DNA of 12,232 bases from Fibrobacterota bacterium (GCA_043753995.1 JAYUVP010000013.1:1-12232); one strand, 5' to 3'. Positions 1 to 11,873 are shown, counted from the stretch's first letter. The notes: a model not told the origin generated them from the letters alone. Program-made: numbers and translations.

Positions 1-1840
1 CTTCTTTGGCGACATAAACCAAGCCTTGGCCAGACCGAAGCGATTTGCCCTTCATCTGATTCCAGCGAATCAAATCCTTTTGGTCAACCCCCAGGGTACG
101 GCTCAAGCCAAATAGGGTCTCCCCTTTTTGCACCACGTGATATCGCTTTTGGCCTGGCGGAAGGGTTTCATCGTCTTCACGTTCTGCGGCCACTCGACTC
201 TTGGGTGGGGATTGGGATAGACGAAGGATTTGACCCGCAAAAATTTTGTCTTTGCGGGAAAGGCTATTTAAAGCCCGCAGTTTATCCATGGTGGTGCCGA
301 AGCGTCGGGCAATATCGAAAAGGTTGTCTCCTCGTCGCACTCGATAAGTCATTTCCAGATGCCGCTTCGGCGGGGTTTGCGCTTCACGCAAGACTTCCGC
401 TTCCAACTCCCCCGTTCCGCCAGCAGCGGGTACAGGAATGATTAAGGTCTGACCGATATGCAGGCGATGGCTTTTCAGGCGATTCACGGATTTCAAAGCT
501 TCCAGGGAAACACCATAGCGACCCGCAATACCACCCAAGTTGTCGCCCCGAGCCACCTGATGCTGTTTCCAGGACATCAATTTTTTTTTGTCCATAGCGG
601 CATACGCGGAGACAAAAGCTTCGCGCGTGCCGACAGGTAAATAGAGCACATGGCTTTTTCGATTAGGCGGCGTGCACCATCGACGCAAGGATGGATTCAA
701 ATCCATGATGTCTTCGTCACTGGCTTTAACCGCCTGGGCAATGTCTTTCAGGGGAAGGCAATCCGAAATAGTGATGGTATCGAAGGCCAAGGGAGCTTGC
801 GGGTCGTCCAGGACAAAGCCAAAGCGCTCGGGCTCATGCCCAAGAATCATGGCTGCCAAGATTTTAGGCACATAAAAACGGGTTTCACTTGGCAAATTCA
901 TTTGCCAATAGGTGAGGCTTGAGTCCCGCCTCAATTCTCGGCGCACACGATTTTCACCGCAATTGTAGGAGGCCATGGCCATTTGCCAATCGCCGAATTC
1001 CTTAAACAAGGTTTGTAAATAGGAAAGGGCGGCATCCGTTGAAGCCACGATATCGCGACGGGGGTCTATCCAGTAATCGTCCATTAAACCATAACGGCGT
1101 CCGGTGCCGCTGATGAATTGCCACATACCGGCCGCCCGCGCATGCGAATAGGCCCGCGGATTGAGGCCGCTTTCCACCATGGCGAGATAGAATAGGTCCT
1201 TTGGCATGCCCCGCGCGTCAAGACGCTCGCGTACAAAGGCTTCATAGCGAGACTTGCGATTGAGCCAGCGGTTAAAAACCTTACGACCAGGACCCGTGAA
1301 ATAAGCCATGGCCTGTTGCACCCTGCCAGGTATGGGTTTGGGCAAAGGCAAATCATAGAGCGAATAGTCGAGGCTATTGGACAGGGAGTCGAAGGCATGG
1401 GAGGACGAATCGCTCGATTCCCCCATATCCGCATCGGTCAAATCCGTGACTGGATTCAGCTCTTCGACCTCGCCGCTGACCCCCGCCACCTGGAGCATGA
1501 GCACCTGTACAGTGTCTTTGAGCGCCTTGGTAGCAATGCGCGAAGCGGCATCCAAGGTGTCGGCGGAATCCAAAACCATCAATTGCGACATGGCGCTATC
1601 GAGGTTTTCTCCGGCTTCAAACCAGAGGGAGTCGTTGAGGCAGTCCATGCCCGCATTGAGGTAATCGGCGGCGCGTTGCAAAGCCGCACGCTCCCAGCCC
1701 GGAGGCATGGCATTGGCTTTTTGGGCCGCGCCATCGGATTTCGGGGCATGGCCAGCACAACCGCCAACAATACACAAAGCGCCGATTCCGATAAGAATCA
1801 GCGCAAGTGTGAGTGGTTTTAGGTGCTCGCGCAAAACCAT
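1..1840 (-). CDS. mltD: MltD-like membrane-bound lytic murein transglycosylase (SLT domain plus at least 3 LysM repeats), probable lipoprotein; 3' end lies outside the window
   Basis: Translated by hand (not in the ORF track); open from ATG 1840 to the window edge. N-terminus MVLREHLKPLTLALILIGIGALCIVGGC has a lipobox-like Cys28. SLT motifs: YLAMVESGLNPRAYSHARAAGMWQFISGTGRRYGL (catalytic Glu codon 1172-1174), AMASYNCGE, LPSETRFYVPKILA. LysM repeats: HQVARGDNLGGIAGRYGVS, YRVRRGDNLFDIARRFGTT, HVVQKGETLFGLSRTLGVD. Confidence 0.93.
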   Translation of the reverse strand, partial: MVLREHLKPLTLALILIGIGALCIVGGCAGHAPKSDGAAQKANAMPPGWERAALQRAADYLNAGMDCLNDSLWFEAGENLDSAMSQLMVLDSADTLDAASRIATKALKDTVQVLMLQVAGVSGEVEELNPVTDLTDADMGESSDSSSHAFDSLSNSLDYSLYDLPLPKPIPGRVQQAMAYFTGPGRKVFNRWLNRKSRYEAFVRERLDARGMPKDLFYLAMVESGLNPRAYSHARAAGMWQFISGTGRRYGLMDDYWIDPRRDIVASTDAALSYLQTLFKEFGDWQMAMASYNCGENRVRRELRRDSSLTYWQMNLPSETRFYVPKILAAMILGHEPERFGFVLDDPQAPLAFDTITISDCLPLKDIAQAVKASDEDIMDLNPSLRRWCTPPNRKSHVLYLPVGTREAFVSAYAAMDKKKLMSWKQHQVARGDNLGGIAGRYGVSLEALKSVNRLKSHRLHIGQTLIIPVPAAGGTGELEAEVLREAQTPPKRHLEMTYRVRRGDNLFDIARRFGTTMDKLRALNSLSRKDKIFAGQILRLSQSPPKSRVAAEREDDETLPPGQKRYHVVQKGETLFGLSRTLGVDQKDLIRWNQMKGKSLRSGQGLVYVAKE

Positions 1841-1874
1841 CACTGGCCCGCGAGCCAAGGACTCAAACCGGCCA

Positions 1875-2087
1875 TTATTCCTCGAAATCGAGGTCCTCGG
1901 CATAATCATTCCACATATCCGACTTTTTGAACTTGGGATTGTCGAAATCGACTTCCTCATTCTCATCGTCATTGGCATCGTCGTCTTCGGCATTCTCATC
2001 TTCCGATTCGAATGGTTCCAAATCGTCGAAATCATCCTGTTTAGGACGCCGTCCACAATACCATGTCTTGTCTTGCTTAGAAGCCAT
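1875..2087 (-). CDS. Small, highly acidic hypothetical protein (70 aa)
   Basis: ATG at 2087 is preceded by a perfect AGGAGG (2093-2098, 5-nt spacer) and a promoter. Sequence MASKQDKTWYCGRRPKQDDFDDLEPFESEDENAEDDDANDDENEEVDFDNPKFKKSDMWNDYAEDLDFEE, 28/70 residues D/E. The longer 2285 start in the ORF track overlaps the upstream gene and promoter and is unlikely. Confidence 0.75.
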   Translation of the reverse strand: MASKQDKTWYCGRRPKQDDFDDLEPFESEDENAEDDDANDDENEEVDFDNPKFKKSDMWNDYAEDLDFEE

Positions 2088-2106
2088 CGGGCCCTCCTGG
2101 ACCTTC

Positions 2107-2122
2107 GCAGAAGTCGAGCCAA
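2107..2122 (-). promoter_or_regulatory. Candidate sigma-54 -24/-12 element
   Basis: Minus strand TTGGCTCGACTTCTGC: GG (2120-2119) N10 GC (2108-2107), close to consensus YTGGCACG-N4-TTGC. The predicted start (~2095) would fall inside the Shine-Dalgarno, which weakens the call. Confidence 0.35.
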
Positions 2123-2149
2123 ATATATCTTGGACCTCCCCATTGTCAA
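2122..2149 (-). promoter_or_regulatory. Sigma-70-type promoter for the acidic protein / mltD unit
   Basis: Minus strand TTGACA (2149-2144, perfect -35), 16-nt spacer, TATATT (2127-2122, 5/6 match to -10); intergenic and correctly placed upstream of the RBS. Confidence 0.7.
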
Positions 2150-2183
2150 GCATTTCCGCCCAATTAGGCAAGGTCTTTTCACG

Positions 2184-2220: not shown

Positions 2221-3765
2221 TCAGTCGCGGCTCTTAAAATCCAATGGAAAAGAAACCGGAATATCGGCAGTTTCTCCTGGATCACCGCGGAAACGCCACC
2301 GTTTCACATTCTGTAGAACGTCCGCAACAAAGGCAGGATGCTCGATGCTGCTTTTTTCGGAAACCGTTTTGGCGTCCCGCACCGCGCCGTCGGGACCAAT
2401 CACCAGGCGTACCATCAGCCGGCCATCGAAGGGCTCCCCTTTACGCAACCATTTCTGAAAAAGAAATTCCAATTCGCCTCGATTGCTTTCTAGGGTGGCA
2501 ATGATGGCTTCCCGACGCAGGGGATCGGCCTTGATACGCGTGGCCATACGCCTCTGCTCAGGAATTTTTCGCAGAGCCGCCTTTAAGCTTCCAGCTTGAT
2601 CTTGAGCGCTGTCGGCGCGCTTGAGAGCGGCCAATGGAACGGTGCCGTCCGGCGATTTCTCCAAACTGTCCGAAGTCATGACGATTCGCCCTGAATCGGC
2701 TCGCAGGGCCTGACGTCTTTGCATTCCGGAGACACGGGATTTGGTTTGTTCGGTCGATTTCAAGGCATTGATGAATTGAAAATCCTGATACTTCTGCAAC
2801 TGTAGCAGCGCCGCTTTTTCCAAATCCGCGTCATTCTGGTAAAATTTGCCAAGAACATAGAGGCGACGATTGGCTTGCTTGGCTGAATTGGAATTGGGCG
2901 CCTCACCGACGATAGAGCGATAGGTCGCCACGGCATCGCTGTCTTGTCCCATTTCCTCTTGTGCCCGGCCAAACCAATACCGCACTTCCAACTTTTGTGC
3001 CGACGTGGTTTTGCCGTCGCTGAGGACTTGATTGAAAAGATTCATGGCTTCGATGGTACTGCCCAGTCGAAAGAGGCGCTTGCCCTGCTCCAAAGGCCCC
3101 AAGGATTGTTGATGGGCCAAGCGCAACTCGGTTTCCATCCCCTTGAGTATGTCTATCATGCGCAGGGCGACGCGATTTTCGTCGGTGCCAGAAATCAAAT
3201 TGGAAATCGATTGAAAATCCTTTCGGGCACCCGCCAAGTCGCCCAGCAGGCTGAGGCAAAAGCCGCGATGTAAACGCATGGTCGCCGCGGTTTGACTGGA
3301 GAGCTCGCCGCCATCCAGGGCATGGGAATAAATTCCGACGGCTTGGGTGTATTTGCGCCCTCGCTCATAGAAATACCCGAGCTCCAAGTCGCGGCGAGTG
3401 CCGTCGGGAATATCGTAGATATGTTCTGACTTGCCTAATATGAAGCGAACGCCCTTGAGGAGCCAGATTATGACCTTCTCCTGCAGGGTCGGCGCCTGAA
3501 TGCTTTCGGTTTGCCCCTTGGCCTCCGGAGCATTAACCATGGCTTGGAGCCGCAATTCCAAGGCCGTTTCATCCTCTTCGGGCATAGACCCACGCTGGCG
3601 AATCATTTCATAGCGGGCCAGCATGCTCAGAGCTGACGTATTGTTATAACTCTGCGAAAGCGCCGCCATGGCACGCGCCATTTCCTTCATTCGGAATTCG
3701 ATAACGGCTTGATTGGTCCAAATGGAAAAGGAAAGCAAGGCACCAATGATGATGAGTGGGCGCAC
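2221..3765 (-). CDS. Membrane-anchored or exported TPR protein with C-terminal TonB_C-like (AgmX/PglI-type) domain
   Basis: 514-aa ORF. Hydrophobic N-terminus (PLIIIGALLSFSIW); TPR-like helices (LELGYFYERGRKYTQAVGIYSHAL, LHRGFCLSLLGDLAGARKDF, RYWFGRAQEEMGQDSDAVATYRSIV); C-terminal GRLMVRLVIGPDGAVRDAKTV...VLQNVKRWRF...VSFPLDF typical of the TonB C-terminal fold (~2224-2520). The GTG start has a weak RBS and is uncertain. Confidence 0.8.
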   Translation of the reverse strand: MRPLIIIGALLSFSIWTNQAVIEFRMKEMARAMAALSQSYNNTSALSMLARYEMIRQRGSMPEEDETALELRLQAMVNAPEAKGQTESIQAPTLQEKVIIWLLKGVRFILGKSEHIYDIPDGTRRDLELGYFYERGRKYTQAVGIYSHALDGGELSSQTAATMRLHRGFCLSLLGDLAGARKDFQSISNLISGTDENRVALRMIDILKGMETELRLAHQQSLGPLEQGKRLFRLGSTIEAMNLFNQVLSDGKTTSAQKLEVRYWFGRAQEEMGQDSDAVATYRSIVGEAPNSNSAKQANRRLYVLGKFYQNDADLEKAALLQLQKYQDFQFINALKSTEQTKSRVSGMQRRQALRADSGRIVMTSDSLEKSPDGTVPLAALKRADSAQDQAGSLKAALRKIPEQRRMATRIKADPLRREAIIATLESNRGELEFLFQKWLRKGEPFDGRLMVRLVIGPDGAVRDAKTVSEKSSIEHPAFVADVLQNVKRWRFRGDPGETADIPVSFPLDFKSRD

Positions 3766-3823
3766 CGCGTAAAAAAACTCGGAGGCGCCGCCGCGGCTGG
3801 GAACGTTTGCGTTCAGCCGTTCT

Positions 3824-5125
3824 TCAATTGGTGCGCTTGTCGATTCCGTAGCAGCTGCCCTCGGTTTTCTTGACCTTTTTCTTCATTTCCGCAGCGATTT
3901 GAACAATCATGCGATGATCCGTGATTGGCTTATAGTGATTGCTCGCTACAGCCAAAGAAATGGACATGAGCGGGAAACGCATGCGTCGCCCCTGGCGATC
4001 AATAGAATCGATGAAGCCTTGCTTAGCGTCGGCCTCATTGTAAAACTGCTTGACCCCAGCGTCGAAACTCGAAATGATGCCCTTGCAAAGGCCTTCCCAA
4101 TTATCGAAAGGCGTGACAATGACGAAATCATCGCCGCCTTCATGGCCCACAAAGGTGTCCGCATTACCGAATTTCCGGGCGGAATCGAGAAAGGCGTCGC
4201 GAGTATAAAGAATGGCATCATCCCCTTTAGTGAAGCCGTATTTGTCGTTATAAGCCTTGAAATTATCCAAGTCACCGTAGATCACTGCGAACTCACGCTG
4301 CGCAGATATCATGTCATCGATATGCCGAATAATGACATTGTTTCCCGGCAATCCAGACAGGGGATTACTCCCTTTGGCCTCTTCGCGAATGCGCACCAGG
4401 TTGAGCAACATTTCATTGAATGAATTTGCCAATAGGCCGATTTCATCATCTTGCTTGATGTCTATGGTTTGATTGAATTCGCCCACGGAAATACGATGGG
4501 TGGCATCTTCTAACTTGGCCAAGGGATTGATGATAATGCCCCGCAAGAAAAGCACGAAGGCAATTTGCAAAGCAATGATGACCGCAGTCACGAAAAGGCA
4601 GAGTCGCAATAGCACGCGGCGATCAGCCTCCAGGGTCGCAATGGAAAGCCTCACGCGCGCGATAACCACTTCCCCTGAGGCTAGGGCCTGTGGCAAATAC
4701 AGATCGATGCGATGGTCTTCAAAACGCAAATCATGGAAAAAAGGTTTGCCTTCCAATTCCAGTTTGGCCACAGCGCGATTGAGCAAAAGCTTTTCGTCGT
4801 CTTTCAGGGGGCTGCCTTGGCCAAAAAGCCTTTTCCCCCCTTCCAAAAAAACCTCAGCGCCGGGCAATCCCTCTTTTTTCACCAGGGAGTCCAGTTTTTT
4901 CCAAGGGCCCTGCGAGCCTTCCGCCCCCACGGTGCCCGCCAATAGGGACATGGTGCGCGACAACTTGACGCTTTGATTTTCAGCTATCAACTGCTGATTG
5001 CGAATGATGAGGTCGCTTTGATTTTCCCAAATGATGAAATTGAAAACCGAGGCCAGCACCACCGTCAATATGATGCTGAGAACGGCGGTCTTGTAGGAAA
5101 GTGAGTTGCGGCGTATGCGTAGCAA
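3824..5125 (-). CDS. Membrane-bound HAMP + GGDEF-domain protein (GGDDF-type diguanylate cyclase)
   Basis: Two TM helices (AVLSIILTVVLASVFNFIIW; LCLFVTAVIIALQIAFVLFL), HAMP (NPLAKLEDATHRISVGEF...DDEIGLLANSFNEM), GGDEF motifs NPLSGLPGN, YGDLDNFKAYNDKYGFTKGD, GHEGGDDFV, SISLAV. TTG start just after GAGGT. Confidence 0.92.
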   Translation of the reverse strand: MLRIRRNSLSYKTAVLSIILTVVLASVFNFIIWENQSDLIIRNQQLIAENQSVKLSRTMSLLAGTVGAEGSQGPWKKLDSLVKKEGLPGAEVFLEGGKRLFGQGSPLKDDEKLLLNRAVAKLELEGKPFFHDLRFEDHRIDLYLPQALASGEVVIARVRLSIATLEADRRVLLRLCLFVTAVIIALQIAFVLFLRGIIINPLAKLEDATHRISVGEFNQTIDIKQDDEIGLLANSFNEMLLNLVRIREEAKGSNPLSGLPGNNVIIRHIDDMISAQREFAVIYGDLDNFKAYNDKYGFTKGDDAILYTRDAFLDSARKFGNADTFVGHEGGDDFVIVTPFDNWEGLCKGIISSFDAGVKQFYNEADAKQGFIDSIDRQGRRMRFPLMSISLAVASNHYKPITDHRMIVQIAAEMKKKVKKTEGSCYGIDKRTN

Positions 5126-5131
5126 GCGACC

Positions 5132-6712
5132 TCAAGCGGATCTTTGTTGCCGACGGTCCTGGCCAAAGATTGCCTGAAGTGTATGGAACAAATCGTTGAG
5201 ATTGCAAGGCTTTTCCAAAAGGGTATAGCCTAGAAGCTTTCGGGTTTCCTTTTCCGCTGGTTTCATGTCCTGATGCACCAAAATGGCCGAACGCCTCTCG
5301 GTGCTCATGCTCCCCAGGGCCAGGAGGTGATAATCGTGTCCAAGGGCGCCCAGATGGGACGGCTCATTGATAAGGATCAAATCCGAGGGCGGCAAAGCAA
5401 TGGAATTCCATGTCTCGGGAGTCGAAGCCAGGAATTGGAAATCAAGGTCGCTTCCTTCTTCCAGGCCCAGGCTGGATAAATCAGGAATGTCATGAGCCAA
5501 ATCCAAAATCAGGACTTTACGTCGAACTTGCCTTAAAGCCCCCGAGCGGCGTTTTTCAATGGGCAAATGCACGACGAAAACCGAACCACGATGTCGCGTC
5601 GATTCGACGAAAATCCGTCCGCCATGCAATTCCACGAAGGACTTGCTGATGGCAAGGCCCAGGCCATGTCCCTTGCCTGACATCACACTACCCGAGGCGG
5701 TATTGAAGCGATCGAAAATCGAGTCCAAGTCTTGAGGGGAAATGCCAGGACCCGTGTCTTGAATGGAAAACACCAGAGTATTGTTTTGCTTCAGGGTGCG
5801 CAAACTGATGCGCCCCCCATTGCGGGTGAATTTGATGGCATTGCCCAGGAGATTGCTGAGAATGCGGCTCACTTTTTGAATGTCGAGATACATGTCCGGG
5901 ATGGGCTCGAATACCGATTCGACGGAGATGTTTTTGCTGTCGGCCAATCCCTTAAGCGATGCCGCGGTGGTTTCAACTTCACGTTGAAAGCTCGCCTTTT
6001 CCAATTTCAGGGACAATTTGCCAGCTTCAATTTTTGCTGAGTCAAGCAAATCGGTGACCATGTCGATCATGAATTGGCAACTGCGGTGTATGGTGCGAAT
6101 CGGCTCCAGCTGGGTTTGCTGCAAATTGCCTAAGACGCCTTCCATCAATAATTCGGCATAGCAAATCATGGCCGAAAGGGGTCCACGCAAATCATGGACA
6201 GCCATATACAGGAAGTTTTGCTGATTCTCGATATGGCCATTGAGGCTTGCTAGGCGGGCGCGAAGCCGGTGGTTCAGGATTTGTTCGGTGAGCACCCGGG
6301 AACGGGTGCGGAGCATGGACCACAACCGGTTTTGCAAAACATCCAGGGCGTCTTCGCCAGCATGAACGAAGGCGAAGCCTCGTTCATAAAGCTGGACTCT
6401 TTCACGATCGGAAATATCCGCCGCGGATACGATGACCGAACTTTGCAATAAGAACTGGGCGTCAGGGTCAGTGGCTAAGGCCGATGCCGCGAAGTCCTCT
6501 GCGCGCTGCTTAGGAATGATCCAGACATGCAAAGCATCCTTAGGCAAGTCGAAAGTCGGCGGAATCTCTTCTTCGAGTGCGGGAAAATCGGCTAAGGCGG
6601 TGCGGAGGCGCCCCGCCAAGGCGGCATCACCGGCAATGAAGCGCAGGCGTGGTGGTGCCAGCGCGCCAATTCCTTGGCCTTCAGGGCCGACATTTCCACT
6701 CGGGGTGATCAC
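5132..6712 (-). CDS. Cytoplasmic sensor histidine kinase (HisKA + HATPase_c) with degenerate receiver-like domains at both ends
   Basis: H-box MAVHDLRGPL, N-box NLLGNAIKFT, G1 DTGPGIS, F-box IFDRF, G2 GHGLGLAISK. Start placed at GTG 6712 because it forms a GTGA overlap with the upstream stop (6709-6711); the 6805 start would overlap that gene by 97 nt. Confidence 0.9.
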   Translation of the reverse strand: MITPSGNVGPEGQGIGALAPPRLRFIAGDAALAGRLRTALADFPALEEEIPPTFDLPKDALHVWIIPKQRAEDFAASALATDPDAQFLLQSSVIVSAADISDRERVQLYERGFAFVHAGEDALDVLQNRLWSMLRTRSRVLTEQILNHRLRARLASLNGHIENQQNFLYMAVHDLRGPLSAMICYAELLMEGVLGNLQQTQLEPIRTIHRSCQFMIDMVTDLLDSAKIEAGKLSLKLEKASFQREVETTAASLKGLADSKNISVESVFEPIPDMYLDIQKVSRILSNLLGNAIKFTRNGGRISLRTLKQNNTLVFSIQDTGPGISPQDLDSIFDRFNTASGSVMSGKGHGLGLAISKSFVELHGGRIFVESTRHRGSVFVVHLPIEKRRSGALRQVRRKVLILDLAHDIPDLSSLGLEEGSDLDFQFLASTPETWNSIALPPSDLILINEPSHLGALGHDYHLLALGSMSTERRSAILVHQDMKPAEKETRKLLGYTLLEKPCNLNDLFHTLQAIFGQDRRQQRSA

Positions 6713-8052
6713 GTTTCTTGCAGCTTGTACTCGTTGAGTTTGTTTCGCAAGGTACGGATGCTGATATTCAGCATTTCGGCAGCCTGGGTGCGATTGTCTT
6801 CGCAAGACTCCAAGGTTTTCATAATAAGAAGTTTTTCGGCTTCGGCCACGGTCATGCCTGCGAACAATCCCACCTCACGGGGATTCTCTCCCGGCACGGG
6901 AGCATCAAGCCTTAAATCCTGCGGTCCGATTTCTCGATTCTTCGCGAAGACCACGGCGCGCTGAATCACGTTTTCTAATTCGCGGACATTGCCCGGCCAG
7001 CCATGCTGGAGCAAGCGTTGCATAGCGGTGGCGCCGAAACCTGGCACAGTGAATCCATTATCGCCATTGTATTTGCCAACGAAGAATAAGGCTAAGGCCT
7101 CGATATCCGCGGTGCGATCGCGCAGCGGAGGCACCCGCACGGGAATCACATTGAGGCGATAAAACAGGTCTTCGCGAAAAGTCCCTTTGCGGACTTCTTC
7201 TTCCAAATTGCGGTTGGTGACAGCCACGATGCGCACATCTACGGGAATCTCCTCGCTGCCACCCACCTTGGTGATTTCCCGCTCCTGGAGGACGCGCAAG
7301 AGCTTGCTTTGGGCAAAGAGCGGCATTTCCCCGACTTCATCCAGCATCAGAGTCCCGCCATGGGCCTGCTCGAATTTGCCGACGCGGGTGCGAATGGCGC
7401 CGGTATAAGCGCCTTTCTCATGGCCGAAGAGTTCACTTTCGATCAGGGATTCGGGAATGGCCGCGCAATTGATTTTCACGAAGGGCTTGTCCGCGCGGCG
7501 ACTCTTGAGATGAATGGCTTGCGCCAGCAATTCCTTGCCGGTCCCCGATTCGCCAGTGATTAGCACGGTCGAATTCGAAGCGGCCACTTCTTCGACGGTG
7601 CGCATGAGTTCTTGCACCGGGGCGGCCTCGCCCACGAAGCGGTAGCGATCGGCCAAAGACTCACGCAAGCGGCGATTCTCGCCTTCGAGGCTGCGCAGTC
7701 GCAAAACCTGGGCAACCGTATGCTCAAGCATTTCAATTTGAAAGGGTTTTTCGACGAAGTCACGCACGCCAAGCTTCATGGCCTTCACGGCATTCTCTAT
7801 GGTGCCGAAGGCCGTCATGAGAATGATGCTGGCCGAAGGATCGCGGTGAATGATTTTCTCCGCCATTTCCAGACCGGTCATGCCAGGCATTTTGAAATCG
7901 GAAATCACCAGCTCAAAACGGCCCGACTCATAAGCTTCCAAGGCTTCCTGACCATGGCGCTTGACCCGCACGCGATGCCCCAGCCTCGAAAGGCTGGCGG
8001 AGATCAAATCGCGCATTAACTCTTCATCATCCACGACTAGGATGTCAGCCAT
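6709..8052 (-). CDS. Sigma-54-dependent response regulator, NtrC family (REC + AAA+ + Fis HTH), FleR/FlrC-like by context
   Basis: REC ILVVDDE...VISDFKMPGMTG...EKPF; Walker A GESGTGKE; ESELFGHEKGAYTGA; Walker B LMLDEVGEM; FREDLFYRLNV; WPGNVRELEN; HTH NRTQAAEMLNISIRTLRNKL. Confidence 0.96.
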   Translation of the reverse strand: MADILVVDDEELMRDLISASLSRLGHRVRVKRHGQEALEAYESGRFELVISDFKMPGMTGLEMAEKIIHRDPSASIILMTAFGTIENAVKAMKLGVRDFVEKPFQIEMLEHTVAQVLRLRSLEGENRRLRESLADRYRFVGEAAPVQELMRTVEEVAASNSTVLITGESGTGKELLAQAIHLKSRRADKPFVKINCAAIPESLIESELFGHEKGAYTGAIRTRVGKFEQAHGGTLMLDEVGEMPLFAQSKLLRVLQEREITKVGGSEEIPVDVRIVAVTNRNLEEEVRKGTFREDLFYRLNVIPVRVPPLRDRTADIEALALFFVGKYNGDNGFTVPGFGATAMQRLLQHGWPGNVRELENVIQRAVVFAKNREIGPQDLRLDAPVPGENPREVGLFAGMTVAEAEKLLIMKTLESCEDNRTQAAEMLNISIRTLRNKLNEYKLQET

Positions 8053-9307
8053 TTCCCGTTCCCTTCGCGTCGATGCGCACTTGAAATTCCGTTCCCTTAC
8101 CCACTTCGCTGGTCACGCTCAATTGGCCGCCATGCAAGGCCACAATGCGTTGCACTATGGCCAAGCCGAGGCCGGTGCCCTGTTCCTTGGTGGTGAAGAA
8201 GGGGTTGAAGATCTTGTCCAAATTGGCCGGGACTATGCCGAGGCCAGTATCGCAAACGCCGATGCGCAGCCAACCGTCCTCGTCCATGGCCGCCTTCAAG
8301 GTGAGGACACCTTGGCCGGGCATGGCTTGAATGGCATTGAAAATCAAATTGAGAAAAACCTGCTGAAATTTTTCCGTATCCAAACGAATAGGCAGGGAGG
8401 CGAAAGCCCATTCGCGTACGATTTCGATGGGCTTATTTTCCTTGGCGATTTCGACTTCGGCATAGCGCAGAATCTCATCCATCCAGTGGGTGAACTCGAC
8501 GCGATGCAAATTCAATTCCATGGGGCGCGTGTAGACTAAAAGGTTGCTGACGATTTTATTCAGGCTCGACACGCCCTGCACGATTTTGCGCACCAAGAGG
8601 CGTCTGGGATCGTCGATTTCGAGATCGCGCTCCAGCAAACCCGCGAAGCCGCCAATGCCGGCCAGGGGATTGCGTATTTCATGGGCCACCGTGGCCGCCA
8701 TTTCGCCCATAGCCGCCAGGGTTTGGGCATGTTGCATGCGCTGTTGCATGCGCTTGATTTCGGTAAGATCGCTAGCCACCTCGACGGCTCCCAAGACCTG
8801 TCCTTGGGGATCCCTAACCAAAGACGTTGTGAAGCCAATCGGCTTATAGGTGTCCCCCACTTTCCAGTATCGCTCGCCTCCGGTCTTGGCATTCCCGTCT
8901 TTCAAGGTTTGCAATAAGGGCAAGTCCCCGTCGGTCATATCTGCAAAGAGGTCGGCATAGCTCGCTCCCCTTGCATGTATGGCAGGAACGGCGAACATTT
9001 TCTCGGCAGCCGCATTGTAAAGGTTGATGCGACCATCGGTATTCACCATGACCGCGGCCGAGTCCATGCTTTCCAATACGGATCGGAGTTGATTACGTAC
9101 CTGTTCATTCTCGCTCAGCGCAGCGGTCAATTCACGATTCTTGTCTTCGAGTTCGCGGCTAATGCGATCGAAGCGCGACATGAGAATGCGATAGGCCTCT
9201 TCCAGGCGTTCGACATGGCCGCGAAACCAATCGAAAAGCCCGGTCATTTTGGCTTGGGTTTCGGGAGGCAACCCGGCAATCATGTCCGCTGGCGAGGCCG
9301 ATGTCAT
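8045..9307 (-). CDS. Soluble PAS-domain histidine kinase, NtrB family, FleS/FlrB-like
   Basis: N-terminal coiled coil (LFDWFRGHVERLEEAYRILMSRFDRISREL) resembling the FleS/FlrB N-terminus; PAS (VLESMDSAAVMVNTDGRINLYNAAAEKMF); H-box GEMAATVAHEIRNPL; NLIFNAIQAM; DTGLGI; IFNPFFTTKEQGTGLGLAIV. Overlaps the response regulator start by 8 nt. Confidence 0.94.
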   Translation of the reverse strand: MTSASPADMIAGLPPETQAKMTGLFDWFRGHVERLEEAYRILMSRFDRISRELEDKNRELTAALSENEQVRNQLRSVLESMDSAAVMVNTDGRINLYNAAAEKMFAVPAIHARGASYADLFADMTDGDLPLLQTLKDGNAKTGGERYWKVGDTYKPIGFTTSLVRDPQGQVLGAVEVASDLTEIKRMQQRMQHAQTLAAMGEMAATVAHEIRNPLAGIGGFAGLLERDLEIDDPRRLLVRKIVQGVSSLNKIVSNLLVYTRPMELNLHRVEFTHWMDEILRYAEVEIAKENKPIEIVREWAFASLPIRLDTEKFQQVFLNLIFNAIQAMPGQGVLTLKAAMDEDGWLRIGVCDTGLGIVPANLDKIFNPFFTTKEQGTGLGLAIVQRIVALHGGQLSVTSEVGKGTEFQVRIDAKGTGNG

Positions 9308-9312
9308 GGGGT

Positions 9313-9798
9313 CTAAGCCGAGCCGCGAAAAATGGCCAGGCGCGCCTGCAATTCCTCGTCCGGATTGCGCGTGGTCAGAGCCGAGGTAGTCGTGCCCTCC
9401 GACCCGGCGGCGGAGGCAGATCCGGACACCTCTTTGCCAGCCAGATCCGACTCGGGAAAGGCTCCTTGATGGCGACCATGAATGGCATTCGCCACGGTTT
9501 CGATTTCGCTAAGCACTTGGGCCACCCCCTGCTCGCGAAGGCTGACCTTTTCGGCCTCAGGCAAGCCTCCGAATTGCTTTACCAAAGGAGCCAATTCAGC
9601 GCGTGTGGTTAAAACCCGTTCTTGCACTGCGGTTTGCTTTTGCACCAAATCCATGAGCCCCGAAAAAGCGCCTTGATTCAAACAGGCCAATGCCTCGGCC
9701 TGTAAGCCTTCCAGCTCACGCAATGCCTGCAACTCTTGCCGTAGCAAGGTCAGGAATCGTGTCAGGAAATTGGCGTCTTTAATCGAGAACCTCCGCAT
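9313..9798 (-). CDS. Helical coiled-coil protein, FlgN-like flagellar export chaperone candidate
   Basis: 161-aa ORF filling the gap in the operon. The pattern LTLLRQELQALRELEGLQAEALACLNQGAFSGLMDLVQKQTAVQERV resembles the FlgN/FliT helical bundle. CDS is likely; the family call is by eye only. Confidence 0.65.
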   Translation of the reverse strand: MRRFSIKDANFLTRFLTLLRQELQALRELEGLQAEALACLNQGAFSGLMDLVQKQTAVQERVLTTRAELAPLVKQFGGLPEAEKVSLREQGVAQVLSEIETVANAIHGRHQGAFPESDLAGKEVSGSASAAGSEGTTTSALTTRNPDEELQARLAIFRGSA

Positions 9799-10918
9799 AT
9801 TCCTTTTGCCAAATGGCGTCTTCGCGTTGCCACTTGGCCTGAGCGGCCCAATAGCTATCGGAGAAATTATCGATCACGCGTTGATAGGCATTCAAGGCCA
9901 AGTCATAGCGGCCTTGTGCTTTATGCACATTGCCGATTTGATACCAGGCCCAGGGTAAATCCGCGGCGTCGGAATGGGCTTTGACAAAGGCCTGATAGCG
10001 ATCCATGGCGCCTTTCCAATCCTTTTGGCGAAAACTCATGTCGGCTGACCGAACCTGGGCCTCTAGGCAAAGTGACTTGGCTTCGGGCACATTCGCAGCT
10101 TGACAGGTTTTCTGCGCCGCTTCGAAATGGGCCATGGCCCGCGCCGGTTTACCGAATTGGGCTTCATGCAATCCCGAACGCAATTGCAAATAAATATTTC
10201 GATACCCGCTCTTATTCGTCGTCAGGGCTTGGGTGAAATAAGCCGCGCGTTTTTGCATGTCGGGCATTTTCTCGCCGCATAATGCCAATTGCCAATCGCG
10301 TTCCGCCGCCGAGGGACCGAAAATTTGATCGGGCTGCAATTTCAGAAAATAGCGTTCGGCCTTGACCGCACTTTCCACATTGTCTTCGAGACCATGAGCA
10401 CGTCCATACAGGTAATAGGCTAGACTAAAATATTTGCGGTTGCGTTCAGGCGACGCCCCAGAGAAGGCTTCCAATTGGTTCAAGGCCTCCTTGCCTAATT
10501 GCATGCGCAAATAGACGGCGGCCAAATTCAGTCGGGCGATGTCGGCATTTTCCGTGCCTGGAAAATCGCGCACGATTTCTTTCAGGGTCTGTACCGTGGG
10601 CTCTAGTCGCTCACGACGAAAATAAGCATGGGCTTGCGCCATTTGCTTTCCCGAGGGCGAAAGGCTATCGGCAATCAAAAACAGAAAACCATCTTCCATC
10701 GGCAAACCCGAAACCGAGGAGACTACGGGCGCCGCTTCGTGGCTTTCGGCCTTTGCCTCTACCTTTTCGGTGTCACTCGGAGACGCCACCGTATGGGCTT
10801 CGTGAGAAGGGTCAACCGCCGCTTTGTGAGGCGCTTCTATGGCAGCCTTGTCAGCTGCTTCTACGGCAGGCTTGTCATGCGCCTCTGGCGTTTCTTTCTC
10901 CAGAGCTGGATTTTCCAT
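9779..10918 (-). CDS. C-terminal fragment of the frameshifted TPR protein, as read
   Basis: TPRs such as ARLNLAAVYLRMQLGKEALNQLE and AWYQIGNVHKAQGRYDLALNAYQRVIDNFSDS; the frame is open upstream of the ATG as far as 11188. Confidence 0.55.
   Translation of the reverse strand: MENPALEKETPEAHDKPAVEAADKAAIEAPHKAAVDPSHEAHTVASPSDTEKVEAKAESHEAAPVVSSVSGLPMEDGFLFLIADSLSPSGKQMAQAHAYFRRERLEPTVQTLKEIVRDFPGTENADIARLNLAAVYLRMQLGKEALNQLEAFSGASPERNRKYFSLAYYLYGRAHGLEDNVESAVKAERYFLKLQPDQIFGPSAAERDWQLALCGEKMPDMQKRAAYFTQALTTNKSGYRNIYLQLRSGLHEAQFGKPARAMAHFEAAQKTCQAANVPEAKSLCLEAQVRSADMSFRQKDWKGAMDRYQAFVKAHSDAADLPWAWYQIGNVHKAQGRYDLALNAYQRVIDNFSDSYWAAQAKWQREDAIWQKEYAEVLD
10790..10885 (-). repeat. Degenerate 24-bp (8-aa) tandem repeat, 3-4 copies, in the TPR protein linker
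   Basis: Units gaggcgcatgacaagcctgccgta / gaagcagctgacaaggctgccata / gaagcgcctcacaaagcggcggtt / gacccttctcacgaagcccatacg encode EAHDKPAV / EAADKAAI / EAPHKAAV / DPSHEAHT. Confidence 0.65.
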
Positions 10919-10977: not shown

Positions 10978-11829
10978 TTACGCCTTTGGCTGGAAGCGTA
11001 CGCAGCTCCTCAATCCATTTTTGGGCCTTCTCCTTACCGTCCGAGGACGGCGTCGCCTTAGCATAAGCCTCGAATTCGCTGATGGCCTCACCAGTGCGTC
11101 CGGCTTTTTGATAATGCGTCCGAGATAATAATGAGCATTGTATCCCCGGTCGGGATAAGCAAAGCTGCGCTTGAAATTGTAAGCGGCTTTATTCCATTCG
11201 CCGGCCTCATAGCGCATTACGCCGCCCAGATAATAAGCGCCGGGATGGCCGGGATATTGTCCTAAAACGCGCCGTAATTTTTCTTGTGCTTTTTCTTTTT
11301 TGCCTTCGCGATAAAGGTCGATGGCAGCCTGGAATTCCTTGTTTTCGTATTTGGGATCAAGGGACTTTCCAGGGGCTTCTTTTTTTGCAACCTCGCTAGG
11401 GATGACCTCGTCTTTAACCGGTTCCGCTTTCGCGGCTGGCTTGGCCTTGACGATAGGCTCGTGATTCGAGGCGTCTTCAGGATGGGCCGTGGCGGAGGTG
11501 GTTTTTGCCATTTTCCCCGAGGCTGTCATCACGCCTTGTTGCGCTTCCTTGTCCTGAGGATCTTTGGCTAATGCCTTGCGATAACTTTCCGCGGCCTCTT
11601 CCTTCTTCCCCATTTTCAAAAGAAGTTCGCCGCCCAAGCGATAGGCCGCCCCCGATTCCGGGTGCTCGGCCAAATGCAAATTCACTTCTTGCAGGGCTTG
11701 AGCCAATTGGCCTTGACCGGCCAATTTTCGGGCAATGCGCAGCCTTAATTCGCCATCCTCCGCCTGAACCCAAGCCACCGATAGGCTTAAGGCTAAGCAA
11801 AAAATCGAACGGAATCCGGCAAACAACAT
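10978..11829 (-). CDS. N-terminal fragment of the frameshifted TPR protein, as read
   Basis: Signal peptide plus TPRs (AYRLGGELLLKMGKKEEAAESYRKALAKDP; AYYLGGVMRYEAGEWNKAAYNFKRS); the Arg-rich tail after LGRI looks out of frame. Confidence 0.5.
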   Translation of the reverse strand: MLFAGFRSIFCLALSLSVAWVQAEDGELRLRIARKLAGQGQLAQALQEVNLHLAEHPESGAAYRLGGELLLKMGKKEEAAESYRKALAKDPQDKEAQQGVMTASGKMAKTTSATAHPEDASNHEPIVKAKPAAKAEPVKDEVIPSEVAKKEAPGKSLDPKYENKEFQAAIDLYREGKKEKAQEKLRRVLGQYPGHPGAYYLGGVMRYEAGEWNKAAYNFKRSFAYPDRGYNAHYYLGRIIKKPDALVRPSANSRLMLRRRRPRTVRRRPKNGLRSCVRFQPKA

Positions 11830-11873
11830 CCTCACCTCTTCATCAGGGCTTTAGCATGGCTCTATGTCAGGCC

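Follow-up and report, generated by a model that had tools for sequence, protein, structure and literature searches.

The subject of this analysis is a 12,232-nt stretch of DNA from a Fibrobacterota bacterium (GCA_043753995.1, JAYUVP010000013.1:1-12232), referred to below as the window, and in particular two neighbouring genes within it: one for a membrane cyclase of the GGDEF type with the active-site motif GGDDF, and one for a protein that joins tetratricopeptide repeats (TPR) to a C-terminal TonB_C domain, here called the TPR-TonB_C protein. We found that the two genes form a linked pair, adjacent in all 20 loci sampled from other Fibrobacterota families, and that a TPR or TPR-like gene also neighbours related membrane cyclases in 24 of 27 loci outside the phylum. 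A preliminary description of the window had joined the pair to a second histidine kinase gene (HK2) as a three-gene module. We rejected the three genes as a natural unit, HK2 being found in 9 of 151 genomes and in none of the 20 other-family loci, and the unit of study is corrected to the cyclase and the TPR-TonB_C protein. We regard it as evenly balanced whether these two work as a functional pair in which the TPR-TonB_C protein, spanning the envelope, would act as a co-sensor and set the synthesis of cyclic di-GMP (c-di-GMP).

Conservation of the cluster in Fibrobacterota

We searched 41 related genomes with the TPR-TonB_C protein (a tally that includes G021, flagged as unpublished and not used further), took 16 loci from the window's own family and order for the comparison of synteny, and drew the 20 further loci from ten other families of the phylum. 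Profile searches for the TPR-TonB_C protein, HK2 and flagellin were run on a single sample of 151 Fibrobacterota genomes.

The order TPRa–TPRb–(FlgN-like)–HK1–NtrC–HK2–cyclase–TPR-TonB_C–MltD, in which HK1 and NtrC are the kinase and the response regulator of a sigma-54 two-component pair and MltD is a lytic transglycosylase, was kept in 16 of 16 family and order loci as far as the contigs reach. HK2, the cyclase and the TPR-TonB_C gene stand together in 15 of these, the sixteenth contig beginning 343 nt before the cyclase, and since the order recurs in this way, the gene arrangement is more than chance. At the 20 loci of the other families, where identity of the TPR-TonB_C protein is 24-29%, the order TPRa/TPRb–HK1–NtrC–cyclase–TPR-TonB_C was kept without exception, with the cyclase immediately upstream of the TPR-TonB_C gene and the regulator immediately upstream of the cyclase (17-804 nt away). 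HK2 is missing from every one of these loci, where its sole matches are weak, paralogous and lie over HK1, and no MltD-like gene follows on the same strand in any of them; HK2, like the linkage to an MltD-like gene, is thus peculiar to the window's order. What is conserved throughout is a core of the sigma-54 pair, the cyclase and the TPR-TonB_C protein, preceded by the two TPR genes.

The profile searches gave the same picture at the level of genomes. Full-length, single-copy orthologues of the TPR-TonB_C protein were found in 55 of the 151 genomes (34 of 54 genera) and in none of the 56 genomes of family f5, and full-length orthologues of HK2 in nine genomes, every one in the window's order. 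Co-occurrence of the three homologues, which the preliminary description had proposed as a check of its module, is thus borne out for the cyclase and its downstream neighbour and lost for the kinase, whose place in a conserved unit had been part of the same proposal.

The GGDDF cyclase

The cyclase gene (3824..5125, minus strand; TTG start) encodes a protein of 433 aa, whose layout, from Pfam and structure prediction, comprises a first transmembrane segment (TM1), a periplasmic domain predicted to be PAS/Cache-like (about residues 30-178), a second transmembrane segment, a HAMP domain (193-244; 51.7 bits) and a GGDEF-type domain (253-431). The match to GGDEF (PF00990), at 38.7 bits, passes the threshold of 23.8 and is the weakest of the nine GGDEF matches in the genome, whose c-di-GMP network otherwise includes eight further GGDEF, two EAL and two PilZ matches. 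The label of HAMP-GGDEF cyclase given to the protein earlier holds for both domains, but the motif is actually GGDDF, which departs from the active-site definition [G/A/S]G[D/E]E[F/Y] given in PMC8835794.

This departure is a stable feature of a large clade. The segment GHEGGDDFV is invariant in an alignment of 16 of 16 cyclase orthologues. A scan of a species-level genome collection for the patterns FNFIIWE and Y[GA]DLDNFK, neither of which includes the motif itself, gathered 80 clade loci, and GGDDF is found in every one of them. Databases hold more than 7,654 relatives of the GGDDF domain, annotated in generic terms only; many of those in Bacillota, Actinomycetota and other phyla are response regulators of REC-GGDDF type, and membrane HAMP-GGDDF proteins occur in Geobacteraceae, in Omnitrophota and in metagenome-assembled genomes (MAGs) of Spirochaetia and of a lineage labelled Planctomycetales. 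The first metal-binding Asp is invariant in the 16 orthologues, as are N293 and D302, which align with the solved cyclase 4urs and which we take to be equivalent to PleD N335 and D344. One cyclase open reading frame (ORF), at locus L020 (3686-5419, genome G015), was excluded from the alignment (A1): it is 577 aa long, and its match to the window protein stops at residue 420, possibly through a frameshift, a fusion or an assembly error.

At the position that specifies the nucleobase, Asp is found in 62 of the 80 clade loci, including all Fibrobacterota loci, and the window enzyme likewise has Asp (K-G-D-D). The remaining 18 loci, with Ser in 17 and Asn in one, are all of Geobacteraceae type. 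Hypr enzymes are defined by Ser at this position, from which the window cyclase is set apart by its Asp. RxxD product-inhibition sites are common, though not universal, in GGDEF enzymes; at what we presume to be the expected position before the motif, none was found in the 16 orthologues, whose consensus upstream is G-D/N-x-x-T-F-V-G-H-E-GGDDF. The role of the specificity position in product choice is treated in PMC8835794, and since the window cyclase keeps the guanine-specifying Asp, its product, by analogy, is likely c-di-GMP.

GSU1937 of Geobacter sulfurreducens is the only member of the GGDDF clade with activity data. As described in PMC8835794, it is a transmembrane HAMP protein that combines GGDDF with the Hypr-defining Ser, it accounts for part of the cGAMP present in vivo when Geobacter reduces Fe(III), and a fusion of its GGDDF domain made both cGAMP and c-di-GMP in E. 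coli, while a GADDF mutant was dead. A reading of the motif as the sign of a Cas10-like oligoadenylate cyclase was rejected, since the guanine-contact residues and the GSU1937 data speak for a dinucleotide cyclase of GGDEF type.

The sensor region (residues 30-178) was modelled with AlphaFold2 (AF2) from 43 homologues at a pLDDT of 80.3, as a long N-terminal helix and, after it, an alpha/beta sandwich. The best Foldseek matches of this model were extracytoplasmic sensor domains of PAS/Cache type, those of WalK, PctD, DvhD, PctC, DcuS and KinD (E from 3e-4, TM scores 0.4-0.6), from which the PAS/Cache-like assignment is predicted. Where the chain leaves TM1 it carries an E-N-Q motif, which is at least 90% conserved across phyla.

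The TPR-TonB_C protein

Downstream of the cyclase lies the gene for the TPR-TonB_C protein (2221..3765, minus strand; GTG start, 514 aa), assigned with Pfam and NCBIfam. By inspection, a hydrophobic anchor (about residues 3-22) is followed by a strongly conserved juxtamembrane stretch, a TPR region (about 124-320; TPR_6, 35.5 bits in Pfam), a variable, low-complexity linker and the TonB_C domain (about 415-514). The TonB_C domain passes PF03544 (27.6 against 24.6), TIGR01352 (28.5 against 27.1) and the AgmX/PglI tail model NF033768 (48.2 against a cut-off of 40), so the TonB_C domain reported earlier is confirmed. The protein scores 19.4 on the GltG equivalog, against 650. Its TPR region gives a sub-threshold match to YbgF/CpoB (TIGR02795, 29.3 bits against a cut-off of 90.1).

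Public annotations call the protein 'TonB family protein', 'TPR protein' or 'hypothetical' only, and a protein-atlas look-up returned its own Fibrobacterota cluster first, followed by clusters of shorter TonB_C or TonB_C plus TPR proteins from Acidobacteriota and others. Among the ORFs of the window, which alone was covered, there is no ExbBD/TolQR-type motor gene. The outer half of the hydrophobic segment (window 3700-3765, minus strand) holds Ser14, replaced by Thr in 1 of 17 sequences, and an invariant Asn18, with a spacing that we take to resemble the S-x-x-x-H pair of TonB and TolA anchors. A complex prediction for cyclase residues 1-200 with TPR-TonB_C residues 1-330, run without controls, gave 0.10 against a mark of 0.32 and weighs neither way.

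Cyclase and TPR pairing beyond Fibrobacterota

Of the 24 membrane GGDDF loci outside the phylum with a TPR or TPR-like neighbour (27 examined), six encode a large TPR protein with a membrane anchor no more than two ORFs from the cyclase (L038, L039, L041, L042, L061 and L073). In the Spirochaetia MAG (L038) the TPR gene starts 2 nt past the cyclase, and its product, which has a PEGA end in place of TonB_C, shares 31% identity with the window protein over its TPR core (E 3e-22). Four of the six are Omnitrophota loci (L041, L042, L061, L073), three of them with a PilZ gene adjoining the cyclase (L041, L042, L061), and at the Planctomycetales-labelled locus (L039) the TPR gene is upstream and divergent. 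The Omnitrophota MAG locus L061 (6521-13888) carries in turn an ExbB-like gene, an ExbD-like gene, TonB_C, PilZ, the HAMP-GGDDF cyclase, a 269-aa protein and an 899-aa TPR protein, so that TonB_C and TPR flank the cyclase as separate genes; here TonB_C and PilZ were called by Pfam, and the ExbB and ExbD likeness was judged from N-termini only. Another Omnitrophota MAG locus, L082 (2279-5240), has two HAMP-GGDDF genes in tandem and a stand-alone receiver gene ahead of them; no TPR gene lies within two ORFs.

All 18 Geobacteraceae-type loci (L043, L049, L052, L060, L069 and 13 more) have a small lipoprotein gene directly downstream of the cyclase, and in 14 of the 18 its start and the cyclase stop share 4 nt. 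The lipoprotein, of about 162-188 aa, has an invariant Cys17, a 'GVTDEALFRL' motif, one TPR-like unit and a C-terminal coiled coil. Seven members match a Pfam TPR family individually at E <= 0.001, and the profile of the lipoprotein family aligns with the TPR core of the window protein at an hhalign probability of 91.7% (E 7.9e-7). This lipoprotein may be an as yet unrecognised partner of the GSU1937-like cGAMP synthases.

Two controls bear on how far such neighbours would be expected. Among 104 neighbour ORFs of membrane GGDDF loci, 13 have TPR matches, 12 on the downstream side and one upstream (of about 50 upstream ORFs). The 41 cytoplasmic REC-GGDDF loci have 144 neighbour ORFs, of which any TPR family matches at most two, a bound read from a list of families with at least two to three matching members, in which no TPR family was listed. 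Taking kinship into account, the pairing pattern amounts to about five independent lineages. The pairing of cyclase and TPR-TonB_C protein in the preliminary description is supported, both within the phylum and, for TPR neighbours, outside it.

The second histidine kinase and its pseudo-receiver

HK2 (5132..6712, minus strand; GTG start), characterised with Pfam and structure prediction, is a cytoplasmic histidine kinase of 526 aa with a HisKA domain (residues 164-231, 47.5 bits) and a HATPase_c domain (277-386, 101.8 bits). Since its H, N and G boxes are intact, HK2 is probably a working kinase.

The C-terminal residues 390-526 (137 aa) were modelled with AF2 from 15 orthologues (pLDDT 83, pTM 0.78), giving a five-strand alpha/beta order. 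Receiver domains account for 10 of the 12 Foldseek matches at E <= 0.001 and for most of all those listed, among them CpxR, RR468, DrrD, DesR and PhoB (E 1e-4 to 2e-3, TM scores 0.55-0.65). Pfam Response_reg does not match this domain, and the best match of its profile to the Protein Data Bank (PDB) is at an E of only 0.14. From the sequence pattern and the strand order of the model, Asn449, at the end of the third strand (…LLINE…), was placed at the position of the phospho-accepting Asp; N449, E450, K501 and P502 are invariant. As modelled, then, the C-terminal domain (about residues 395-526) is a receiver fold with Asn in place of the phospho-Asp, and the fold together with the invariant Asn449 supports the earlier claim of a pseudo-receiver for this part of the kinase. 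The N-terminal 150 or so residues form a degenerate domain that may be receiver-like, judging by pattern, with insignificant PDB profile matches (HP1043 receiver, E 0.14; FrzS, E 1.5).

A precedent for such a domain is ShkA of Caulobacter crescentus, which c-di-GMP activates by binding to a pseudo-receiver and relieving autoinhibition, according to PMC7010744 and bioRxiv 10.1101/675454. After the last pseudo-receiver helix, HK2 has an invariant tail, G-x-D-R-R-Q (residues 517-522; window 5132-5200, minus strand), in which D519, R520 and R521 are present in 15 of 15 orthologues. In ShkA, a DDR linker motif occupies the c-di-GMP site, and the D-R-R of the HK2 tail bears a loose resemblance to it, which we offer as a lead only. 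By analogy with ShkA, HK2 might read c-di-GMP, which we consider improbable.

The gene array of the window

All long ORFs of the window are on the minus strand. The packed array opens with a TPR protein that has an N-terminal signal-like segment (10978..11835), followed by a second TPR protein, with BamD/YbgF-like TPR_6, which is the other upstream member of the conserved cluster (9779..10918). A 161-aa protein (9313..9798) comes next, with a weak match to FlgN that lies below the cut-off (Pfam, E 0.0022, 18.9 bits against 30.5); its ORF overlaps the TPR gene by 20 nt and ends 5 nt from HK1, and FlgN-like relatives are found at the equivalent position in several loci of the window's order. HK1 (8045..9307) is a cytoplasmic AtoS-like histidine kinase (PAS, HisKA and HATPase_c) and the partner of the NtrC/AtoC-type sigma-54 response regulator (6709..8052), which has a receiver, an AAA+ sigma-54 activator domain and a Fis-type helix-turn-helix (in Pfam, Response_reg 94.9 bits, Sigma54_activat 246.9 and HTH_8 46.9). 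These five assignments, and that of the last gene below, come from Pfam and NCBIfam.

The junctions confirm exactly the coordinates given before for three co-oriented genes joined to the sigma-54 regulator. The regulator end, ...ACG TGA, overlaps the HK2 start as GTGA; the HK2 stop TGA (5134-5132) is separated by 6 nt from the TTG of the cyclase, and the cyclase stop (3826-3824) by 58 nt from the GTG of the TPR-TonB_C gene. The GTGA coupling is real in the window but found in this genome only, the gap between NtrC and HK2 in relatives being about 19 to 234 nt. The eight genes from 11835 down to 2221 are co-oriented with overlaps or gaps of at most 59 nt, so that HK2, the cyclase and the TPR-TonB_C gene belong to a longer packed array, of which they form the 3' end.

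About 380 nt beyond the TPR-TonB_C gene lies an MltD-like lytic transglycosylase lipoprotein gene with SLT and three LysM domains (2..1840, minus strand, continuing past the window edge); the ORF spans 2..2182, and its start is probably at the lipoprotein signal near 1840. A weak hairpin (2213-2197, minus strand) directly follows the TPR-TonB_C stop, and a strong sigma-70-like site, TTGACA-16-TATATT (2149-2122, minus strand; 11 of 12 matches), precedes the MltD-like gene, which together suggest that the transglycosylase is a separate transcription unit. Apart from these two elements, a generic scan of the window for promoters and terminators gave counts at background.

Association with flagellin

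Flagellin is present in 84 of the 151 phylum genomes. All 55 genomes with a TPR-TonB_C orthologue are flagellin-positive, compared with 29 of the 96 genomes that lack one. Joint absence of the two is seen in four small genomes of family f1 (G003, G007, G010, G014), in G025 of family f2 and in four of the eight genomes of family f8, in which the four positives for each also coincide. Flagellar rod genes were not found next to the cluster in any of five genomes checked; the distance is 21 kb in G001, 47 kb in G142 and over 300 kb in G012. On the FlbD and FlgR models the sigma-54 regulator reaches 406 and 358 bits, in each case under the cut-off; its scores on AtoC (483 bits) and the PEP-CTERM regulator are higher. 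The MltD-like protein matches the flagellar lytic transglycosylase model NF047373 weakly (32.7 bits against a cut-off of 234). Feedback on motility genes, as put forward in the preliminary description, finds no candidate target in the window apart from the sub-threshold FlgN-like match.

Discussion

The mechanism that we favour would run as follows. The GGDDF enzyme would be an active cyclase making c-di-GMP, and the TPR-TonB_C protein an accessory co-sensor anchored beside it in the inner membrane. The TonB_C end may reach a partner in the outer membrane or associated with peptidoglycan, and the TPR or juxtamembrane part may modulate the sensor or transmembrane region of the cyclase, so that the state of the envelope would set cyclase output, by a logic analogous to that of YfiB and YfiR acting on YfiN. 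The upstream sigma-54 pair would control or co-ordinate expression of the cluster. HK2 would be a later, order-specific add-on, inserted between regulator and cyclase, with its pseudo-receiver as an input or docking domain; a ShkA-like response of HK2 to c-di-GMP would be possible and is the weakest step. Direct physical control within the pair is more doubtful than a functional relationship as such, and we lean moderately against it. Still somewhat less likely, in our view, is the broadest form of the proposal: that a GGDDF membrane cyclase and a periplasm-facing TPR protein form a widespread two-protein sensor (in Fibrobacterota, Omnitrophota, the Spirochaetia MAG, the Planctomycetales-labelled MAG and Geobacteraceae, including the neighbourhood of GSU1937), of which the TPR partner gained a TonB_C end in Fibrobacterota, where the pair would couple outer-envelope or flagellar state to c-di-GMP and be kept only in flagellated lineages.

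Several observations weigh against these proposals. Synteny inside a single phylum may be inherited and not selected, and outside it the Geobacteraceae loci are close kin that form one lineage, the Omnitrophota loci forming another. With the exception of L038, the TPR partners outside the phylum have no detectable orthology to the window protein; the hhalign match of the lipoprotein covers a generic TPR unit of YbgF/BamD type, and the recurrence of TPR may reflect analogy or the commonness of TPR proteins in envelope operons. Two membrane loci are without a TPR neighbour (L064 and L082), and a third (L040) ends at the cyclase. For the enzyme, the Pfam GGDEF alignment spans only profile positions 6-89 of 161, and PMC8835794 reports that full-length wild-type GSU1937 was inactive in E. 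coli, with only one of four fusions active, and cites a GGDDF/EAL protein of P. aeruginosa as inactive. The Cache-like sensor could bind a small ligand alone, and physical contact between the cyclase and the TPR-TonB_C protein is hypothetical. The window has neither a PilZ protein nor a similar c-di-GMP effector, and a scan of it for the sigma-54 promoter consensus (at most two mismatches) gave seven matches against 7.5 expected, none well placed. As for HK2, it is absent from most genomes that hold the pair, no ShkA chain was among the matches of its pseudo-receiver profile to solved structures at E <= 1, and its DHp sequence differs from that of HK1.

The two proteins may instead be co-expressed and independent, the cyclase sensing a small periplasmic ligand and the TPR-TonB_C protein being structural, like TolA or CpoB, within one sigma-54-driven envelope regulon. 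We think this somewhat unlikely. It would fit the predicted fold of the sensor, of a type that commonly binds small ligands, the sub-threshold YbgF/CpoB matches of the TPR region, the lack of orthology among TPR partners in other phyla, and the envelope-facing TPR character of further cluster genes, with a murein transglycosylase following in this order. It accounts less readily for the adjacency of membrane GGDDF and TPR genes in lineages whose neighbourhoods are otherwise unrelated, for the 4-nt overlap of start and stop at 14 Geobacteraceae-type loci, and for the cytoplasmic members of the clade, which lack TPR neighbours (at most 2 of 144 ORFs for any family). Less probable again is that the GGDDF domain is catalytically dead and serves as a nucleotide receptor or scaffold, the least likely of the readings weighed here. 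The fourth motif residue is indeed Asp and not Glu, and the Pfam match is partial, but GGDDF, the metal-binding Asp and the guanine contacts are invariant over 80 of 80 loci in many phyla, which points to selection on a working active site; in addition, the protein has no other catalytic domain fused to it and no RxxD site with which to bind product, and the GSU1937 domain is active (PMC8835794).

A flagellum-linked module, in which the sigma-54 pair would be FlgS/FlgR- or FlbD-like, the TPR proteins flagellar periplasmic parts or sensors, and the cyclase a reporter of motor or envelope load, is compatible with control of the cyclase by the TPR-TonB_C protein and would name the signal. The flagellin counts speak for it (55 of 55 genomes with the TPR-TonB_C protein against 29 of 96 without), as do the joint absences in f1, f2 and f8, the FlgN-like ORF in the cluster, the sub-threshold FlbD and FlgR scores and the weak NF047373 match of the MltD-like protein. 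Yet the rod genes are not adjacent in the five genomes checked, the regulator scores higher on AtoC and the PEP-CTERM regulator, 29 flagellin-positive genomes lack the cluster, and the genomes that lack both are small, so that joint loss may equal genome reduction; related genomes are, moreover, not independent observations. On balance we find this module unlikely. The full three-gene circuit of the preliminary description, with the TPR-TonB_C protein sensing surface or envelope and controlling the cyclase, and HK2 binding c-di-GMP and feeding back on motility genes, is distinctly less likely than the flagellar module. In its favour, a mere 6 nt separate HK2 from the cyclase, the receiver-fold domain of HK2 lacks a phospho-Asp, the invariant D-R-R of HK2 is loosely like the DDR motif of ShkA, and ShkA itself offers a precedent for c-di-GMP binding to such a domain (PMC7010744 and bioRxiv 10.1101/675454). 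Set against this are the restriction of HK2 to one order, with none in the 20 loci elsewhere, its lack of sequence likeness to ShkA REC1, its lack of a second true receiver or an identified partner regulator, and the absence of an identified motility target.

The known systems nearest to the favoured pair each share part of its design. YfiBNR/TpbB (E. coli DgcN, P. aeruginosa YfiN) is the textbook case of control of a cyclase by accessory proteins. It resembles the window system in that a cyclase of the inner membrane combines a PAS-like periplasmic sensor with HAMP and a GGDEF-type domain, and in that the output of this cyclase is proposed to depend on accessory proteins of the periplasm or outer envelope encoded alongside. 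The earlier likening of the cyclase to YfiN does not extend to identity, the HAMP-cyclase region matching the YfiN model NF007423 in part, at 45.7 bits against an equivalog cut-off of 325, and none of the nine window proteins matching a YfiR or YfiB model. Unlike YfiBNR, the window has neither a YfiR-like repressor nor an OmpA/Pal-like YfiB, so that both roles would fall to a single bitopic TPR-TonB_C protein, and its cyclase, unlike YfiN, has GGDDF and no RxxD site.

GSU1937 belongs to the same clade as the window cyclase and shares with it a transmembrane N-terminus, HAMP, GGDDF and the absence of EAL or HD-GYP. The Geobacteraceae relatives are 35-40% identical to the window cyclase over residues of about 140-431, and we infer that the Geobacteraceae-type loci are GSU1937 orthologues, G. 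sulfurreducens itself not being among them. They differ in Ser at the specificity site (17 of 18 loci, against Asp in the window), in unrelated sensor regions, and in a neighbour that is a small lipoprotein and not a TPR-TonB_C protein. ShkA, like HK2, is a cytoplasmic kinase with a pseudo-receiver after the catalytic domain; a true second receiver follows in ShkA, whereas HK2 ends at the pseudo-receiver, and beyond the kinase core there is no detectable sequence likeness. The Myxococcus proteins GltG and GltJ (PglI/AgmX) share the NF033768 tail with the TPR-TonB_C protein and are likewise single-pass inner-membrane proteins spanning the periplasm, but the score on the GltG equivalog is far below its cut-off, the window has no Agl or Glt genes and no TolQR/ExbBD motor, and the remainder of the protein is TPR.

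Taken singly, the parts are of known kinds: a membrane cyclase under accessory control, a TonB_C anchor and a kinase with a pseudo-receiver. The recurrent pairing of a GGDDF-clade membrane cyclase with a periplasmic TPR protein, the fusion of TPR to TonB_C and the phylum-wide cluster all appear to be undescribed in the literature searched, supplementary files aside, in which no TPR-controlled HAMP cyclase was found by title and abstract; the earlier impression that the combination is not a described system is upheld to that extent.

To our knowledge, it is unknown for most membrane diguanylate cyclases which signals they respond to, and control by accessory proteins has been worked out for very few. 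If the proposal is true, the cyclase and its TPR co-sensor would offer an input route that can be put to the test in a clade with one characterised member and more than 7,654 proteins in databases, and the pair would suggest what controls GSU1937. Environmental flagellated Fibrobacterota are known almost only from metagenomes, and the pair would then be a first functional handle on signalling in these bacteria.

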